This document shows positions 4,644 through 17,357 of a stretch of DNA of 64,000 bases, piece after piece (within the stretch, counting starts at the first letter, position 1; the number at the start of each line of letters is the position of its first letter). The notes beneath the pieces are model-generated. The model was not told the origin of the DNA. It saw only the letters and a list, made by a program, of their open reading frames with translations, and ran no database searches. Made by a program: the position numbers and the translations under genes. This DNA is from Deltaproteobacteria bacterium. Its GTDB lineage: Bacteria > Myxococcota > B64-G9. The stretch is from contig JAFGRB010000178.1 in assembly GCA_016935365.1 (NCBI GenBank), positions 389-64,388 of the forward strand, in the 5' to 3' direction.

Positions 4644-5621
4644 ATGATCCCGCGCATCTGCTGCATGGCCATGGCGATCTGCCTGGCCGCACCCCAGGCC
4701 GCCCCGGCCGAAGAAGCGCCGGCCCGCCCCCGGGTGGCCGTGCTGGACCTGCAGGGCGAGAGCTTCCCGTCCGAGACCCTGGCCACCCTGACCGGCGTGC
4801 TGCTGAGCGGCCTGAGCCAGGGCGGCGGCCTCGACGTCCTGGGCAAGGCCGACCTGGGCCGGATCCTGAGCGTGGACCAGATCAACCAGCTGCTGGGCTG
4901 CGACGCGAACGACGCGCGCTGCACGCTCGAGCGCGGCCGCTTCCTCGGCAACGCCATCCTGGTCTGGGGCTCGGTGGGCCGGGTGGCCGACAAGGCGGTC
5001 GTGACCGTCTCGGCGGTCGACATGCAGGCCGGGCTCGCCATCGGCCGGGCCAGCCGGACCGTGGACGCCGACGACGGCGACGATCTGATCGAGGCCACCG
5101 GCGAGCTGGCGGCCGAGATCCGGGCGCTGCTGGGCCTGGAGTCCGAGGCCACCTGGACGCCCATCATGGCCGTCAGCCTTCGCTACGGCGGCTTCATATC
5201 CGGCTACGTGGGCGGCGAGGACGCCGATCCGGCCACCTACCTGCACGGGATCGAGCTCGAGTTCAACGCCTTCATCATCCCCGAGGTCCCGGTCTACCTC
5301 AAGGTGGGCCTGACCATCGGCGGCGGCGAGACCGGCGTGGTCTTCGTGCCGGCCACAATAGGCGCCAAGTACCGCTTCATCCGCGACTGGCTCACGCCGT
5401 ACATCGGGCTCGGCCTGGGGCTCGAGTTCCTCGACTTCGACAAGGAGAGCGGCAACGCCTTCAGCCTGCACGTCATCGGCGGCCTCGAGATCAACCCCTG
5501 GAAGCGCCTGGGCTTCTGCGTCGACGGCGGCTTCAACTTCAGCCAGTACTTCAACACCGACACCAAGGATCTGAGCCAGATCGGCGGCAAGATCCATGTG
5601 GGCGTCATCTACCGCTTCTGA
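4644..5621 (+). CDS. Outer-membrane beta-barrel protein with an N-terminal CsgG/LpoB-like periplasmic domain
   Basis: Signal peptide; C-terminal amphipathic beta-strands ending ...VIYRF; an alternative ATG lies at 4620. Confidence 0.6.
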   Translation: MIPRICCMAMAICLAAPQAAPAEEAPARPRVAVLDLQGESFPSETLATLTGVLLSGLSQGGGLDVLGKADLGRILSVDQINQLLGCDANDARCTLERGRFLGNAILVWGSVGRVADKAVVTVSAVDMQAGLAIGRASRTVDADDGDDLIEATGELAAEIRALLGLESEATWTPIMAVSLRYGGFISGYVGGEDADPATYLHGIELEFNAFIIPEVPVYLKVGLTIGGGETGVVFVPATIGAKYRFIRDWLTPYIGLGLGLEFLDFDKESGNAFSLHVIGGLEINPWKRLGFCVDGGFNFSQYFNTDTKDLSQIGGKIHVGVIYRF

Positions 5622-5624
5622 GCC

Positions 5625-6662
5625 ATGGCCGGATCCGCCTGGAGACGGGAGATCGCCGCCTGCGTGAGCGATCCGGAGGCGCTGCCCTTGAGCGCTGCCG
5701 TCAAGAGTCGCGTCCGCCGGGTCGCGGCGCGCTTTCCGATGCGCATCCCGCCCGCCCTGCTCGAGCGCGCGGCGCTCTCCGATCCGCGCTGCCCGATCCG
5801 CCGCCAGGTGCTGCCGGACCCCCGCGAGCTCGCGCCGGGCGGTGCGCTCGATCCGCTCGACGAGGAGTCCTTCCTGCTCGCCCCGGGCATCATCCGCCGC
5901 TTCGAAGACCGGCTCGTAGCCCGGGTCAGCGACCGCTGCCCGGTGCTCTGCCGGCACTGCAACCGCAAGCGCTTCTGGAACACCGACGACGATCTCGCCA
6001 CCCGCGAGGGCCTGGCCCGCGCGCTCTCCTGCGCGCCCGAGGTGCGCGAGGTGATCCTGAGCGGCGGCGAGCCCCTGATGCTCGCAGACCGCAGCCTGGA
6101 CGCGTGGCTCGAGGCGGCCCGCAGCCGCGCAGGCGTCGAGGTGCTGCGCGTCCACACCCGCGCCCCGGCCGCCCTGCCGGCCCGCCTGACCCCGGGCCTG
6201 GCCCGCACCCTGGCCCGCCACCGCCCCCTGTGGGTCGTGACCCAGTTCAACCACGCCCTGGAGATCACGGACAGCGCCCGCCGCGGCATCGCCCGCCTGC
6301 TGGCTGCCGGCATCCCGGTGCTCAACCAGGCCGTGCTGCTCCGCGGGGTGAACGACTCGGTATCCGCCCAAGCGCAGCTCGGACGCGGCCTGGTCGCTGC
6401 CGGGATCAAGCCCCACTATCTCTTCCAGCTCGACCGGGTCACGGGTGCGCTGCACTTCCAGGTGCCGGTGCGGCGCAGCCTGGCCATCGCGGCCGGCCTG
6501 CGCGCGCGCTGCTCCGGGCTCGTCGTGCCCCACCTGCTGGCCGACCTGCCCAGCACCGGCGGCAAGGTGCCGCTCAACCCGGACGCGGTACTGGGCTTCG
6601 TCGAAGGCGGCGTGATGCTCCGCGGCGCGGACGGCAGAGACTACCTCTACCCCGGCCCGTGA
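5625..6662 (+). CDS. KamA-family radical SAM protein (lysine 2,3-aminomutase / EpmB-like)
   Basis: CPVLCRHCNRKRF CxxxCxxC motif and KamA-family conserved blocks. Confidence 0.75.
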   Translation: MAGSAWRREIAACVSDPEALPLSAAVKSRVRRVAARFPMRIPPALLERAALSDPRCPIRRQVLPDPRELAPGGALDPLDEESFLLAPGIIRRFEDRLVARVSDRCPVLCRHCNRKRFWNTDDDLATREGLARALSCAPEVREVILSGGEPLMLADRSLDAWLEAARSRAGVEVLRVHTRAPAALPARLTPGLARTLARHRPLWVVTQFNHALEITDSARRGIARLLAAGIPVLNQAVLLRGVNDSVSAQAQLGRGLVAAGIKPHYLFQLDRVTGALHFQVPVRRSLAIAAGLRARCSGLVVPHLLADLPSTGGKVPLNPDAVLGFVEGGVMLRGADGRDYLYPGP

Positions 6663-12531: not shown

Positions 12532-12594
12532 GGGATAGAAGGTAACCCTCTCCGCAGGAAAAAAGCCACACGAAACCCATCGGGCAGCTGACCC

Positions 12595-12623
12595 TTGAGG
12601 CTGTCAGAGCCTGCGGCTATAAT
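12595..12623 (+). promoter_or_regulatory. Near-consensus sigma70-type promoter (TTGAGG-17-TATAAT) giving a leaderless dam transcript
   Basis: The -10 hexamer ends 8 nt before the ATG at 12632. Confidence 0.45.
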
Positions 12624-12631
12624 AGCGGCGC

Positions 12632-13507
12632 ATGAGCCCGGCAGCCCACAAGGCCCCCGAGCGCGAGGCCAGGCCCTTTCTCAAGTGGGCCGGCGGCAAG
12701 CGCCAGCTCGTACCCAAGCTGCGTAAGCTCGCCCCGGCGCGCTTCGGCACCTACTTCGAGCCCTTCCTGGGCGGCGGGGCGCTGTTCTTCGCCCTGGTCG
12801 GCGACGGCCGCATCCAGAAGCACAAGGCAGTGCTTTCGGACATCAACGCCGAGCTCGTCAAGACCTACGAGGCCATCCGAGACGACGTCGAGGCCGTCAT
12901 CGCCCGGCTGCACGAGCACGACCGCCAGTTCAAGATGCCGGCCGAAGGTCTCGACGCCGACTACTACTACAAGGTCCGCGCCAGCTCGCCGAGATTGGTC
13001 GCCACCAGGGCCGCCCGGATGATCTTCCTCAACCGCACCTGCTTCAACGGGCTCTACCGGGTCAACGCCAGGGGCCAGTTCAACGTGCCGCTCGGCCGCT
13101 ACAAGAACCCGACCATCTGCGACCCGGACAACCTGAAGGCCGTGGCCCGGGCGCTCGAGAAGGCCCAGCTCAGAGAGCAGGGCTATGAGTCGGTCCTCGA
13201 GCGCGCCGCGCGGGGCGATCTGGTCTACTTCGATCCGCCCTACGTGCCCGTGTCGGCCACGGCCAAGTTCGTCTCCTACGGCAAGGACGGCTTCGACATG
13301 CAGGACCAGGAGCGCCTGGCCGGGGTCTTCAGGGCCCTGGCCGAGAAGGGCGTCCAGGTCATGCTGTCGAACTCGGACACCCCCGCCGTCCGGAGGATGT
13401 ACCGCGGCTTCAGGCTGGAGCGGGTCGAGGCGCGCCGCTCGGTCAACTCGCGCAAGGACCGCCGCGGCCCGGTGGGCGAGCTGGTCGTGATGAGCTGGGA
13501 GGGCTGA
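12632..13507 (+). CDS. D12-class N6-adenine DNA methyltransferase (Dam family)
   Basis: FLKWAGGKR and FDPPY motifs. Confidence 0.9.
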   Translation: MSPAAHKAPEREARPFLKWAGGKRQLVPKLRKLAPARFGTYFEPFLGGGALFFALVGDGRIQKHKAVLSDINAELVKTYEAIRDDVEAVIARLHEHDRQFKMPAEGLDADYYYKVRASSPRLVATRAARMIFLNRTCFNGLYRVNARGQFNVPLGRYKNPTICDPDNLKAVARALEKAQLREQGYESVLERAARGDLVYFDPPYVPVSATAKFVSYGKDGFDMQDQERLAGVFRALAEKGVQVMLSNSDTPAVRRMYRGFRLERVEARRSVNSRKDRRGPVGELVVMSWEG

Positions 13508-13902
13508 TGGCCGGACGAGAGACCGCCCCCGCATCCGGCAAGGCGCTCGAGCAGGCCGTGCAGCGGGTGGCCGAGGGGCTCGGGCTGGACTGCGCGTCCC
13601 AGGTCCGCGTGGGGCGCCGGATCTGGGGCGCCGAGCGGCGGATCGACCTGGTGCTGCGCGATCGGCAGAGCGGGCGCCGCCTGGGCCTGGAGTGCAAGTT
13701 CCAGGGCACGGTCGGCTCGGCCGAGGAGAAGATCCCGGCCCTGATCGACGACATCGCCGCCTGGCCGATCGACGGCCTGGTGGTCATCAGCGGGGAGGGC
13801 TTCTCGGCCAACATGAAGGCCTTCCTGCTCTCGACCGGCAAGGTCGTCTACCTCGAGGACCTCGAGATCTGGCTCAGGCTCTACTTCGGAATGGACCTGT
13901 AG
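13507..13902 (+). CDS. Small PD-(D/E)xK-fold nuclease (Hjc/YraN-like); candidate cognate restriction endonuclease
   Basis: IDLVLRD...GLECKF matches the D...(D/E)xK catalytic motif; start overlaps the dam stop (TGATG). Confidence 0.5.
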   Translation: MAGRETAPASGKALEQAVQRVAEGLGLDCASQVRVGRRIWGAERRIDLVLRDRQSGRRLGLECKFQGTVGSAEEKIPALIDDIAAWPIDGLVVISGEGFSANMKAFLLSTGKVVYLEDLEIWLRLYFGMDL

Positions 13903-13959
13903 GTTTTTCCCCGGAAATCGTTCAGGGCAGTGCATCCCCCGTTGTTGCTCGCGATGCGA

Positions 13960-15102
13960 TCAGAGAATCCGATGCGACCAGAGATCGGAAAGGAAATCCT
14001 GGTAAGGGACGATCTCGATACCGCTCGTCCGCCTGCGGCGCGGCTCCCTGCAGACCACGATACGCCGTTGGATCGCATGATCGTCCTGCTGCGTGATGGC
14101 GACCAGACCTCTCAGCTGCCGGTCGTGGACCAGCGTCGAGGACTTCACCTCGATGGCCACCTTTTTCCCGAGGACGAAGTCGACCTCGGCGCCGGTTACA
14201 TCACGCCAGAAATGCAGTCCGTGTCGTCTGGCGAAGTACTGGTGGTAGGCGAAGAGTTCCTGCCATATGAAGTGCTCGAAGGCCTTGCCGAGCATCGGAG
14301 TCTCGGCTGGCACGGAGAAGCTGCCGCTCAGCGCATGAACGACGCCGATGTCGAAGAAGTAGAACTTGCCGCGAGAGATGGCCTTGCGCTTGCCGGTCGT
14401 GCTCAGCGGTGTGAGCATCGTGCCGATGAGCGTATCCTCGAGCACGGAGTAGTACTCGCGGATGGTCCGCGCAGGCACCTGGGCATCGCGCCCCACTCCC
14501 TCGAAGTTCAGGACCTCGCCGTTCCACAGGGCCGCGTGCACGAGAAAGCGTGAAAAGCCCTCGATATTACGGCTGAGCGCTTCCGCCTGGATCTCCTCTT
14601 GCAAGTAGGTCCCGGCATAGCCATGCAACTCCTCCTCCGGTTCGTCGGACAGGTAGACCGGCGGCAGGGAGCCGAACTGGAGCACGCGTTGGAGATCGAA
14701 GTCCTCGATCTCCGGATACACGAACGGCTGCAGGCGGCGTGTCCTGGCCCGCCCCGCCATCAGCGAGGTGTGGGTGCGCTTCAGTTTGCGCGCGCTGCTG
14801 CCGGTGAGCAGGAAGCGGACCCCGGTCTCCTCGATCATGACATGCACCTCGTCCATCAGGACGGGCAGCTTCTGGATCTCGTCGATGACGATCAGCCGAT
14901 CATCGGCCTCAAGCGACTCCCTGATCAGGGCCGGTCGCCTGGAGAGCCTCAGAAAGACATCCGATTTCATGAGATCGTAGACCCTGTGAGGCGGTGCCTG
15001 CTCGCGGATGTAGGCGCTCTTGCCGGTGCGTCGGGGCCCCAGCAAGAGAATGCTGTGCTGCTCGAGTTCCCTCTCGAGGGGGATGATCCTGCGAACGTAC
15101 AT
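13960..15102 (-). CDS. AAA+ ATPase with a DUF4143 C-terminal domain (COG1373)
   Basis: Walker A GPRRTGKS, Walker B LIVIDEIQ; lower GC and weaker GC3 bias than its neighbours. Confidence 0.8.
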   Translation of the reverse strand: MYVRRIIPLERELEQHSILLLGPRRTGKSAYIREQAPPHRVYDLMKSDVFLRLSRRPALIRESLEADDRLIVIDEIQKLPVLMDEVHVMIEETGVRFLLTGSSARKLKRTHTSLMAGRARTRRLQPFVYPEIEDFDLQRVLQFGSLPPVYLSDEPEEELHGYAGTYLQEEIQAEALSRNIEGFSRFLVHAALWNGEVLNFEGVGRDAQVPARTIREYYSVLEDTLIGTMLTPLSTTGKRKAISRGKFYFFDIGVVHALSGSFSVPAETPMLGKAFEHFIWQELFAYHQYFARRHGLHFWRDVTGAEVDFVLGKKVAIEVKSSTLVHDRQLRGLVAITQQDDHAIQRRIVVCREPRRRRTSGIEIVPYQDFLSDLWSHRIL

Positions 15103-15166: not shown

Positions 15167-15242
15167 CAGCAGTGCTGCGGAAAATTGGGATTCCGGGATG
15201 GAACCGAAGCGCTGATAGTATTATAATACGCAAGGATGCCGG

Positions 15243-15563
15243 CTACTTGAGCATCTCCTCGATGGCCTGGACGCGCTTTTTGAGCTTGCGCTTCGGGATG
15301 ACCGCAAAGGCCCCGTCGATACCCATCTCGCCCAGGTAGACGCCGGGCAGCAGGGCGAACTTGATCCAGGCCTCCAGGTGCACCCCGTCCTGGCGCGGCT
15401 CGACCTGGAGGAACTGGGGTCCGAGCATGAGCCCGAGGCCCTTCTTCCACACGCCGGTCTGCTCGTTCTTCTTGAAGCCCTCGGAGACGAGGTACTGCTC
15501 CACTTCCGAGACCGCCTCGTCGACCTTCTTCGACACCTGGATGTCGTTCTGATAGCGGGCCAC
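15243..15563 (-). CDS. Hypothetical 106-aa protein (GTG start)
   Basis: Strong GC3 bias; GGAGG SD 5 nt upstream of the GTG. Confidence 0.55.
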   Translation of the reverse strand: MARYQNDIQVSKKVDEAVSEVEQYLVSEGFKKNEQTGVWKKGLGLMLGPQFLQVEPRQDGVHLEAWIKFALLPGVYLGEMGIDGAFAVIPKRKLKKRVQAIEEMLK

Positions 15564-15710: not shown

Positions 15711-17357
15711 CTATCTCCGGCGCGCCAGAGCGGCGAGCAGCCCCAGCAGGGCGAGCGCGAGGTCCGCGTGGGCTCCGCTGCTCGCGCAGCCGCAGCCGTC
15801 GCCGTCTTCCGGGCGATCCCCGTCGGCTTGCGATCCGGCGTCGGTCGTGCCGGCGTCGGTCGTGCCGGCGTCGGTCTCGACGCCCTGATCCGCGCCGCCC
15901 GCGTCCGGAGCGCTGTCCCCGCCGCCGTCCTCGACACCGCCGTCCTCGCCGCCATCCGGGCCGCCGTCCGGCTCGACGCTCACGCTCTCGACCGCGAGCG
16001 TGTAGCTGGCCGCAGCCCCCTGGTCGGCCAGCAGCACCACGTAGCCCTCGGGCGCATCGGGGATCTCCGCGAAGGGCAGCTGTAAAGGCACGCCGTCTTC
16101 GCAGTCCGCATACCAGACCCGGGCCTCGCCCGCGAGCAGGGCCCGCGCCTGGACGCGCGCGCCGTCCACCTGCAGCTGCACGTCGGCGCCGGGATCGGGC
16201 CGGGCCAGGCGCGCGTAGGCCGCGCCCGTGCCGGTCAGGCTGGCCTGCAGCTCCGACGGGTAGGCGTCGATGCGGTGCGCGAAGCGCGGTGCGCCCACCT
16301 CCAGCAGCGGATGGGCGAGCTCGCCCTCCAGGCCCAGGTGATCTCCGAGCGTGGCCGTGGCCCAGTCGAGAAGCAGAGAGTCCATGGTCTCCTGGCCCGC
16401 CCGGGCGAGCGGGCCCGCGAAGCCCGCCCGGCCGTGGGCCGGGTCGGCCACCAGCTCGCCCATGAACCCCGCCCCGAAGCGCTCGTAGAGGTAGGAGCCG
16501 AAGAGCAGGCAGGCGCCGTAGTGCACGTGGGCGGTCTCCTCGAGCGCCGCCGAGGGATCGGCCAGGTAGTCGTCCAGCCAGGCCTGGTCGGTCTGCGGGT
16601 AGCCGCACAGCACCATGGCCGCCTCGGCGCAGGACTCGTCCACCCAGGACGCCTCCTCGGGATCGCCGCCCCAGTGGATCAAGTGCTGGAGCTCGTGCGC
16701 CAGGATCGAGAGCGTCATCGCCGAGCCCACCGGCCGGATGGCCGAGTTGACGGTGATCATCTCGATCTCGTTGGAGTGGTAGCCCTGCTGGGCCATGGTC
16801 TCCTCGTCCGGGTACTGGTTGAAGGGGTTGAAGAAGCCGTCGAACTGCGTGCCGCCGTACTGGTCGAGCTCCATCAGCAGGATGAAGACGTGCACGTCGC
16901 CGTCCAGCGCGTCCGGCACGGGCCCGAAGACGCCGATCTCGTTGGGCACGATGCCCTGCTCCGGATCGATCGATCCCGCGGGCGTGGCCAGCTCCAGGGC
17001 GGCGAAGACCGCATCCACACCAGCCTGGTCCACGTTCGCGCCCCACTGGTCGTCGGCCACGAAGACGTAGACGTGGTCGCCTACGGCCCGGCAGGTGGCC
17101 GGCACCTGCACGTCCCGGGGCGGCATCTGGCCCAGGTCCCAGGACCAGAACGAGCGCGTATCGCCCAGCTCGTGATCCGGCGCGCGCCGCCCGGGCCGCT
17201 CGCCCTGCCACTGCACGCGGAAGTCCACGTAGCCGCCCTGACGGATGAAGTCGTAGGCCGATCGCACCGCTGGCTCTGCGTGCGCCGCGCCCGCGAGCGC
17301 AGCGACGCACGCGATCGCCAGGCTCGCCGCCGTCTTCTTGCCTGTCCTCACATCCAC
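15711..17357 (-). CDS. Secreted HExxH zinc metallopeptidase with a MYXO-CTERM sorting tail
   Basis: Signal peptide; HELQHLIH...E; C-terminal GCGCASSG + hydrophobic stretch + RRR. Confidence 0.75.
   Translation of the reverse strand: MDVRTGKKTAASLAIACVAALAGAAHAEPAVRSAYDFIRQGGYVDFRVQWQGERPGRRAPDHELGDTRSFWSWDLGQMPPRDVQVPATCRAVGDHVYVFVADDQWGANVDQAGVDAVFAALELATPAGSIDPEQGIVPNEIGVFGPVPDALDGDVHVFILLMELDQYGGTQFDGFFNPFNQYPDEETMAQQGYHSNEIEMITVNSAIRPVGSAMTLSILAHELQHLIHWGGDPEEASWVDESCAEAAMVLCGYPQTDQAWLDDYLADPSAALEETAHVHYGACLLFGSYLYERFGAGFMGELVADPAHGRAGFAGPLARAGQETMDSLLLDWATATLGDHLGLEGELAHPLLEVGAPRFAHRIDAYPSELQASLTGTGAAYARLARPDPGADVQLQVDGARVQARALLAGEARVWYADCEDGVPLQLPFAEIPDAPEGYVVLLADQGAAASYTLAVESVSVEPDGGPDGGEDGGVEDGGGDSAPDAGGADQGVETDAGTTDAGTTDAGSQADGDRPEDGDGCGCASSGAHADLALALLGLLAALARRR

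Follow-up and report, generated by a model that had tools for sequence, protein, structure and literature searches.

Can a protein of only 131 residues, encoded directly behind a Dam-family DNA methyltransferase, be the restriction endonuclease of a complete two-gene system? The question is raised by a stretch of 64,000 nucleotides (nt), hereafter the window, from the Myxococcota contig JAFGRB010000178.1. Here a methyltransferase gene (12632..13507, + strand; 291 amino acids (aa), 32.9 kDa) and the gene of a putative PD-(D/E)XK nuclease (13507..13902, + strand; 131 aa, 14.3 kDa, isoelectric point 5.5) form a compact pair. An earlier inspection of the letters and open reading frames (ORFs), the sequence-only reading, had suggested a two-gene restriction-modification module. 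This suggestion is supported by the linkage of the two genes, the catalytic residues, the predicted fold and the conservation of the promoter. Judging from the sequences and models, we estimate with a probability of about 0.8 that the pair is a self-contained restriction-modification system of Type IIP whose nuclease represents a new, minimal family. GATC as its site is predicted with somewhat less confidence. That the 131-aa protein is an autonomous sequence-specific enzyme, which would define a minimal size for the recognition of 4 bp, we consider reasonably probable. Cleavage by the nuclease, its recognition site, dimerization, protection by methylation and a role in defense are what we infer from these data. 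The type of system is a textbook one, and the nuclease family is new, uncharacterized and unusually small.

The upstream gene encodes a Dam/DpnM-like α-class N6-adenine DNA methyltransferase. The two motifs by which it had been recognized as a D12-class enzyme, FLKWAGGK and FDPPY, are both present in the translated ORF (as RPFLKWAGGK and VYFDPPYV, the latter containing DPPY), together with an FxGxG-type motif (EPFLGGGALF). Both the catalytic and the S-adenosylmethionine-binding motifs are intact, as is required of the modification enzyme of a Type II system. The match to Pfam family PF02086 (MethyltransfD12; E-value 1.5e-58) spans profile positions 1–252 of 253, and the match to TIGR00571 (dam; 1.8e-85) reaches 286.9 bits against a cutoff of 114.85, which places the protein in the Dam family. 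On the E. coli Dam equivalog model it scores 183.9, below the cutoff of 441, and is therefore not an ortholog of Dam itself. Its nearest solved chain is DpnM (2dpm), aligned over the full length with an E-value of 3.9e-66, followed by E. coli Dam (EcoDam) with ~4e-42. The roles of the EcoDam residues that contact GATC or intercalate into it have been described (PMC4417163). In our alignment all of the GATC-contact positions K9, N120, L122, R124, P134 and Y138 are kept, and the position of Y119 is occupied by F, as in DpnM. Since DpnM is the closest chain and the EcoDam contact residues are kept, the predicted target is, by homology, most probably GATC.

The downstream gene is the less familiar partner. 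Its product matches Pfam family PF20472 (PDDEXK_11), a family named for its fold only, with an E-value of 1.2e-19 (70.9 bits; gathering threshold 23.7). The D...ExK arrangement noticed earlier is indeed present (RIDLVLRD and LGLECKFQ), and in an alignment of 67 homologs D47, E62, C63 and K64 are invariant, as are Q66, A72, E74 and K75 and, ahead of them, R38, W40, G41 and R44. Three further residues, E73, R37 and P77, are nearly invariant. We propose D47, E62, K64 and E73/E74 as the active site. The nuclease of the module is thus encoded by a gene of its own beside that of the methyltransferase, and its catalytic motif is intact, as expected of a Type II system. Apart from PF20472, the only Pfam models matched at E ≤ 1 were MTES_1575 (0.097) and DUF234 (0.16), and no informative NCBIfam model matched the nuclease. 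Membership in the DpnII/MboI or MutH/Sau3AI families was considered and rejected, as neither Pfam model matched at this threshold. Vsr (very-short-patch repair) membership was likewise rejected, with no model matched. A search against PDB chains gave matches at chance level only (best E-value 0.12, SurE), so that the nuclease has no solved relative by sequence.

The AlphaFold2 model of the nuclease is confident (predicted local distance difference test 87.4, predicted template modeling score 0.82). The modeled elements follow each other as a helix (residues 11–24), three strands (28–37, 43–51 and 58–65), a helix (72–84), a strand (89–95) and two more helices. This corresponds to the canonical α-β-β-β-α-β core, in which strand 2 carries D47 and strand 3 carries E62/K64. 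According to the model, the protein thus has the core arrangement of the PD-(D/E)XK superfamily (D on β2, (D/E)xK on β3) rather than a non-nuclease fold. Nearly all Foldseek matches of the model are PD-(D/E)XK nucleases, at template modeling scores of up to 0.57; none of the solved structures is a close relative. The sequence-only reading had compared the protein with minimal nucleases of the Hjc/YraN kind. The minimal PD-(D/E)XK nuclease stands, but the specific likeness does not: the fold lies nearer to restriction endonucleases, Can2, XisH and Mrr-like proteins than to Hjc or YraN in particular, and, despite the similarity in fold, neither an Hjc nor a YraN Pfam model matched. Moreover, Hjc is structure-specific rather than sequence-specific, and nucleases of the Hjc/YraN kind, unlike the window nuclease, are not linked to methyltransferases.

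Relatives of the nuclease are numerous. A word-indexed protein search returned 737 of them at E ≤ 0.001. Among the 120 matches listed, almost all are ~130 aa long and 62–80% identical to the query; they come from Myxococcota, Chloroflexota and other metagenome-assembled genomes and are named either 'hypothetical protein' or 'PD-(D/E)XK nuclease superfamily protein'. In a scan of one genome per species, 350 species genomes were found to encode a relative (Myxococcota, Chloroflexota, Acidobacteriota (Vicinamibacterales), cyanobacteria and Verrucomicrobiota). Carriers without a metagenome-assembled label include Synechococcus sp. H65.1 and H60.4 (L023 and L038) and Candidatus Roseilinea sp. NK_OTU-006 (L063). 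Linkage was counted in the best 80 of the 350 genome loci (81 with the window). A Dam-family methyltransferase directly adjoins the nuclease gene in 75 of these 80 loci, so the pair, which might never have recurred elsewhere, co-occurs in unrelated surroundings and in three gene orders. The methyltransferase precedes the nuclease in 51 of the 81 loci, the nuclease comes first in 18 (and in two more cut by contig ends), and the genes are convergent in five. Junctions in the 51 loci mostly lie between −4 and +4 nt. When flanking ORFs of the 81 loci were clustered, only the two genes proved common, the next family occurring in at most nine loci, and neighborhoods of the module differ even within one order. 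The identity matrices of the nuclease and the methyltransferase are closely correlated (Mantel r = 0.85; reached by none of 999 permutations). Because the adjacency is independent of gene order, the flanks are unrelated and the identity matrices are correlated, we conclude that the two genes behave as an independent cassette, moving and diverging together. This is the classical signature of restriction-modification, and linkage independent of order and neighborhood is also what Type II membership calls for.

The loci lacking an adjoining Dam-family methyltransferase are themselves informative. In three of them (L015, L031 and L069) the sequence ends 15–61 nt past the nuclease gene, in two cases at a contig edge; all three are from Anaerolineae, where the nuclease-first order is usual. 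Another locus (L076, 4864..6095) is degenerate: the last ~30 methyltransferase codons remain, and the N-terminus of the nuclease has been replaced. An ORF just downstream (5469..6095) looks transposase-like by eye and matches no Pfam family. In L071 (416..1816; a metagenome-assembled genome of Verrucomicrobiales), the nuclease shares 60% identity with that of the window and lies behind a 326-aa methyltransferase that belongs not to the Dam family but to the β-class family PF01555. We considered a DpnA-type GATC enzyme for this protein and rejected it, as it is closest to CcrM (6e-59), which is GANTC-specific. Consequently, a swap between partners of the same specificity cannot be claimed. Among the best 80 loci, no intact nuclease without a methyltransferase was found where both flanks are complete.

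The same association extends to the wider family. A profile search of 1.84 billion representatives returned 526 proteins at E ≤ 0.001. Typical PF20472 members, of 149–244 aa, score 107–122 bits and extend over all 145 positions of the profile, whereas the 131-aa clade is confined to positions 2–113 and therefore represents a shortened sub-clade. In a clade of 149–185 aa, the nuclease follows a 248–265-aa PF01555 methyltransferase (motif TDPAY) with a 4-nt overlap in five of five independent contexts, the surroundings being different each time; this pair looks like a second uncharacterized two-gene restriction-modification type. Its layout can be seen in L081 (3255..4450) and likewise in L084, L085, L122 and L123, and in L087 the PF01555 methyltransferase of this clade is broken into two ORFs. 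A cluster look-up of the longer PF20472 proteins gave names that amount to 'hypothetical protein' and one evident mis-annotation. An IMG/VR scan (L088–L121) revealed partial relatives only, 30–38% identical, on contigs classed as viral, some of them 150–170 kb long. Dam-family methyltransferases adjoin these relatives in 10 of the 34 loci, and about five more have weak PF01555-type matches nearby. Overall, PF20472 members, found in soil, hot-spring and sediment bacteria, adjoin DNA methyltransferases in nearly all contexts examined.

The arrangement of the two genes and their promoter agrees with what had been described initially. The methyltransferase stop codon (TGA, 13505–13507) shares its A with the nuclease start codon (ATG, 13507–13509), which gives a TGATG overlap (13505..13509, + strand) of a single nucleotide. 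Close to this overlap, still within the methyltransferase gene at its 3′ end, we read a Shine-Dalgarno-like run, GGGAGGG (13497..13503, + strand), positioned for the nuclease ATG. A promoter scan found the −35 hexamer TTGAGG (12595..12600, + strand) and, after a 17-nt spacer, the −10 hexamer TATAAT (12618..12623, + strand), 8 nt before the methyltransferase ATG at 12632. As this ATG is the first start codon past the preceding in-frame stop and the promoter is only 8 nt away, the 5′ leader can comprise at most a few nucleotides. The promoter was thought to be rare in a GC-rich background, and it is the sole sigma-70-like site in 11–16 kb (0.2 expected from shuffles), with 10 of 12 consensus matches; TATAAT occurs three times in the whole window, counting both strands, against 0.42 expected.

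The promoter has counterparts in other genomes. The same architecture was found upstream of the orthologous methyltransferase in seven related loci (L001, L004–L008 and L010), and a variant of it in L009. These promoters share the TTG of the −35 element, a spacer box with the consensus TGTCAGRG and TAnnAT; in the window the box reads TGTCAGAG (12602..12609, + strand), and it has the same position in eight orthologous promoters. The ATG is located 8–9 nt past the −10 element both in the window and in L005–L010, so the proposed leaderless start is itself conserved. The combined pattern TTG-N5-GTCAG-N10-TANNAT occurs once in each of the seven loci, always upstream of the methyltransferase, and nowhere else among 123 loci. 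Since the same promoter recurs at orthologous methyltransferases, it is more than a chance match. Loci bearing the box also have an extra copy of GTCA(A/G) or CTGAC upstream of the −35 element, at varying distance and in varying orientation. As to a C-protein controller, no third gene is conserved across the 81 loci, and no small helix-turn-helix ORF lies within 12532–13960 of the window. The TGTCAGRG box may be an operator for autoregulation where a controller protein is absent.

Taken as a restriction-modification system, the pair would work as follows. A single promoter would give a leaderless bicistronic mRNA, with a predicted start at 12630–12632 and hence 0–2 nt of leader, from which the methyltransferase would be translated first and would methylate the N6 of adenine, most probably in GATC if homology is a guide. 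The nuclease would be translated by coupling through the TGATG overlap and the internal Shine-Dalgarno run; coupled translation would imply that it appears later than the methyltransferase and not in excess of it. Its synthesis would thereby be delayed and limited when the cassette enters a new host. The nuclease itself would be a minimal PD-(D/E)XK enzyme, most likely a homodimer that cuts the sequence recognized by the methyltransferase wherever this palindrome is unmethylated. D47 of β2, E62 and K64 of β3 and an acidic residue from the AEEK helix that follows, which is invariant, would bind the metal ions. This putative site resembles the active site of NgoMIV and Cfr10I, which has the form D...(S/E)xK...E. 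Candidate elements for reading the bases are the invariant GRRxWGxxR hairpin and the N-terminal arm. The cut might be placed as ^GATC and leave a 5′ overhang, like that of the α-class enzymes to which the fold is similar.

Several observations weigh against the restriction-modification assignment. To begin with, 131 residues are very little for both autonomous sequence reading and dimerization. No PADLOC model matched the nuclease, restriction-enzyme models included, and a literature search on PF20472 (PDDEXK_11) found no experimental work on the family. The nuclease is more conserved than the methyltransferase (mean identity 63% versus 51%, with the nuclease value above that of the methyltransferase in 99% of pairs), whereas restriction-modification systems usually show the opposite; the high conservation may stem from how densely a protein of this size is constrained. 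The CcrM-like partner in L071 means that the same specificity in every pairing is unproven. At the positions of D47 and K64, three distant members of ~130 aa (P0163, P0199 and P0227) carry K and F, respectively (RKIKVV...ECFCQ), and they keep Q66 and K75; these may be inactivated or re-purposed nuclease folds. Searches of plasmids (PLSDB) and phages (INPHARED) with tblastn found no close relative of the nuclease and thus gave no sign that known plasmids or phages carry the 131-aa clade. Finally, the observed/expected ratio of GATC is 1.02 in the window (635 sites) and 0.93 in 534 kb of pooled host flanks. With GATC at expectation there is no compositional footprint of restriction; taken alone, the frequency of GATC neither supports nor refutes restriction.

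The small size of the protein bears most directly on whether it acts alone. It could be a bare PD-(D/E)XK module that is unable to read GATC by itself and takes its specificity from the methyltransferase or from the methylation state that this enzyme sets, in a Type III-like manner; the methyltransferase would then target the nuclease, with a Type III-like or Type IIG-like labor split over two small proteins. The predicted secondary structure, which amounts to the PD-(D/E)XK core and three short helices within 131 aa, fits this idea, and so do the tight coupling and co-divergence of the genes. However, the methyltransferases paired with closely related nucleases are of two unrelated folds (D12 class and PF01555), which argues against a conserved docking interface. 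Gene order, moreover, is freely shuffled, convergent pairs included, and the invariant basic and aromatic loops (G36-R37-R38-x-W40-G41-x-x-R44) could read DNA themselves. We therefore consider such a dependent nuclease improbable.

The conservation of the nuclease and the frequency of GATC would also suit a different function, namely a housekeeping Dam-like epigenetic methyltransferase accompanied by a MutH-like strand-discrimination nickase or another repair nuclease with hemimethylated sites as its target. The unusually high conservation of the nuclease is typical of repair proteins, and GATC is not avoided. In addition, the methyltransferase scores slightly better on the PADLOC orphan-methyltransferase model (1.1e-96) than on the Type II model (2.1e-95), and NucS/EndoMS and Bax1 are among the fold neighbors of the nuclease. 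However, the MutH/Sau3AI and Vsr models remained unmatched at E ≤ 1, the pair is patchily distributed over five or more phyla as a cassette with varied neighborhoods and shuffled gene order, and sister clades of the nuclease pair with another class of methyltransferase. In Gammaproteobacteria dam and mutH are not known to be adjacent, and most of the phyla that carry the pair use the MutL endonuclease instead of MutH. A repair function is thus unlikely. Least probable of all is a catalytically inactive protein of nuclease fold that binds DNA and controls an orphan methyltransferase in place of a controller protein, or else a decaying restriction-modification remnant: it would account for the conserved box within the promoter spacer, for the lack of a separate conserved controller (helix-turn-helix) gene near the module and for the distant members without D47 and K64, but the candidate catalytic residues are all invariant in the 67 sequences of the 131-aa clade, which come from several phyla, and neither window gene is truncated, each aligning with its orthologs over the entire length.

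If the pair is a restriction-modification system, its closest known counterparts are the GATC systems DpnII, MboI and LlaDCHI, with which it shares adjacent genes of Type IIP character, a methyltransferase closely homologous to DpnM (M.DpnIIA) and the predicted GATC site. The differences lie mainly in the nuclease. R.DpnII and R.MboI have ~280–290 aa and belong to the DpnII family of Pfam, whereas the window nuclease has 131 aa and PF20472 as its sole family match. Unlike the DpnII system, the window also has no second, DpnA-type methyltransferase. The nearest solved folds are those of BstEII and of the NgoMIV/Cfr10I/PspGI/AgeI group, the latter known as the CCGG family, at an identity of only 9–17%. 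These enzymes are larger (220–325 aa), carry extra recognition and oligomerization elements and recognize other sites.

The claim that the nuclease would be among the smallest Type II restriction endonucleases is borne out by comparison with the smallest enzymes described. The 157-aa PvuII has been presented as the smallest Type II enzyme of known structure (PMC1874628) and, at 18.3 kDa, as the lower end of the size range of Type IIP enzymes (PMC4081073); PacI, with 142 aa, has been counted among the smallest known (PMC11529989). PvuII and PacI are each minimal Type IIP enzymes that work as homodimers, and PvuII, too, is of the PD-(D/E)XK type (PMC1874628; PMC4081073; PMC11529989). The window nuclease is 11–26 residues shorter than these two and unrelated to them in sequence. 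PacI is an HNH enzyme. A further difference concerns regulation. PvuII is controlled by a C protein, whereas the window module has no controller gene. The operon would instead order expression without a controller, through a leaderless promoter, a methyltransferase that comes first and a translationally coupled nuclease.

If active, the 131-aa (14.3 kDa) protein would be smaller than any other Type II restriction endonuclease cited in this comparison, and a function would be assigned to the whole uncharacterized family PF20472. It would also offer a compact model of sequence-specific recognition by a minimal PD-(D/E)XK core and a small GATC-cutting domain for engineering. Interest in the system would rise further if the nuclease proves to be autonomous and sequence-specific, or dependent on the methyltransferase for targeting.

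The surroundings of the module in the window have features of their own. The region of 12.2–15.5 kb has a lower GC content than its flanks, and in 13.8–15.4 kb the GC fraction is 0.59–0.64, compared with 0.70–0.79 in the flanks. Convergent with the nuclease gene lies the gene of a 380-aa AAA_14 + DUF4143 ATPase (13960..15102, − strand), which matches the PADLOC candidate defense family PDC-S01 (1e-49) and is not conserved beside the module in other loci. Together, the ATPase gene and the low-GC stretch may constitute a small acquired defense islet, which would suit the restriction-modification assignment. As regards the boundaries of a mobile element, the window contains no tRNA, and no convincing direct or inverted flanking repeats were found.

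Among short words, CTAG is strongly depleted, with an observed/expected ratio of 0.21 in the window and 0.47 in the pooled flanks of L001–L080. The 396 bp of the nuclease gene contain seven GATC sites. Between the ATPase gene and an unannotated 106-aa ORF without a Pfam match (15243..15563, − strand), the intergenic segment 15123..15227 carries two near-identical tandem hairpins, TTTTCCGCAACTATGCTGCGGAAAA and TTTCCCGCAGCAGTGCTGCGGAAAA, followed by a palindromic TATAAT/ATTATA at 15220–15227. Further downstream, three tandem 15-nt units similar to CCGGCGTCGGTCGTG (15820..15879) lie within the ORF 15711..17357 (− strand), where they encode a short peptide repeat of the DAGTT type.

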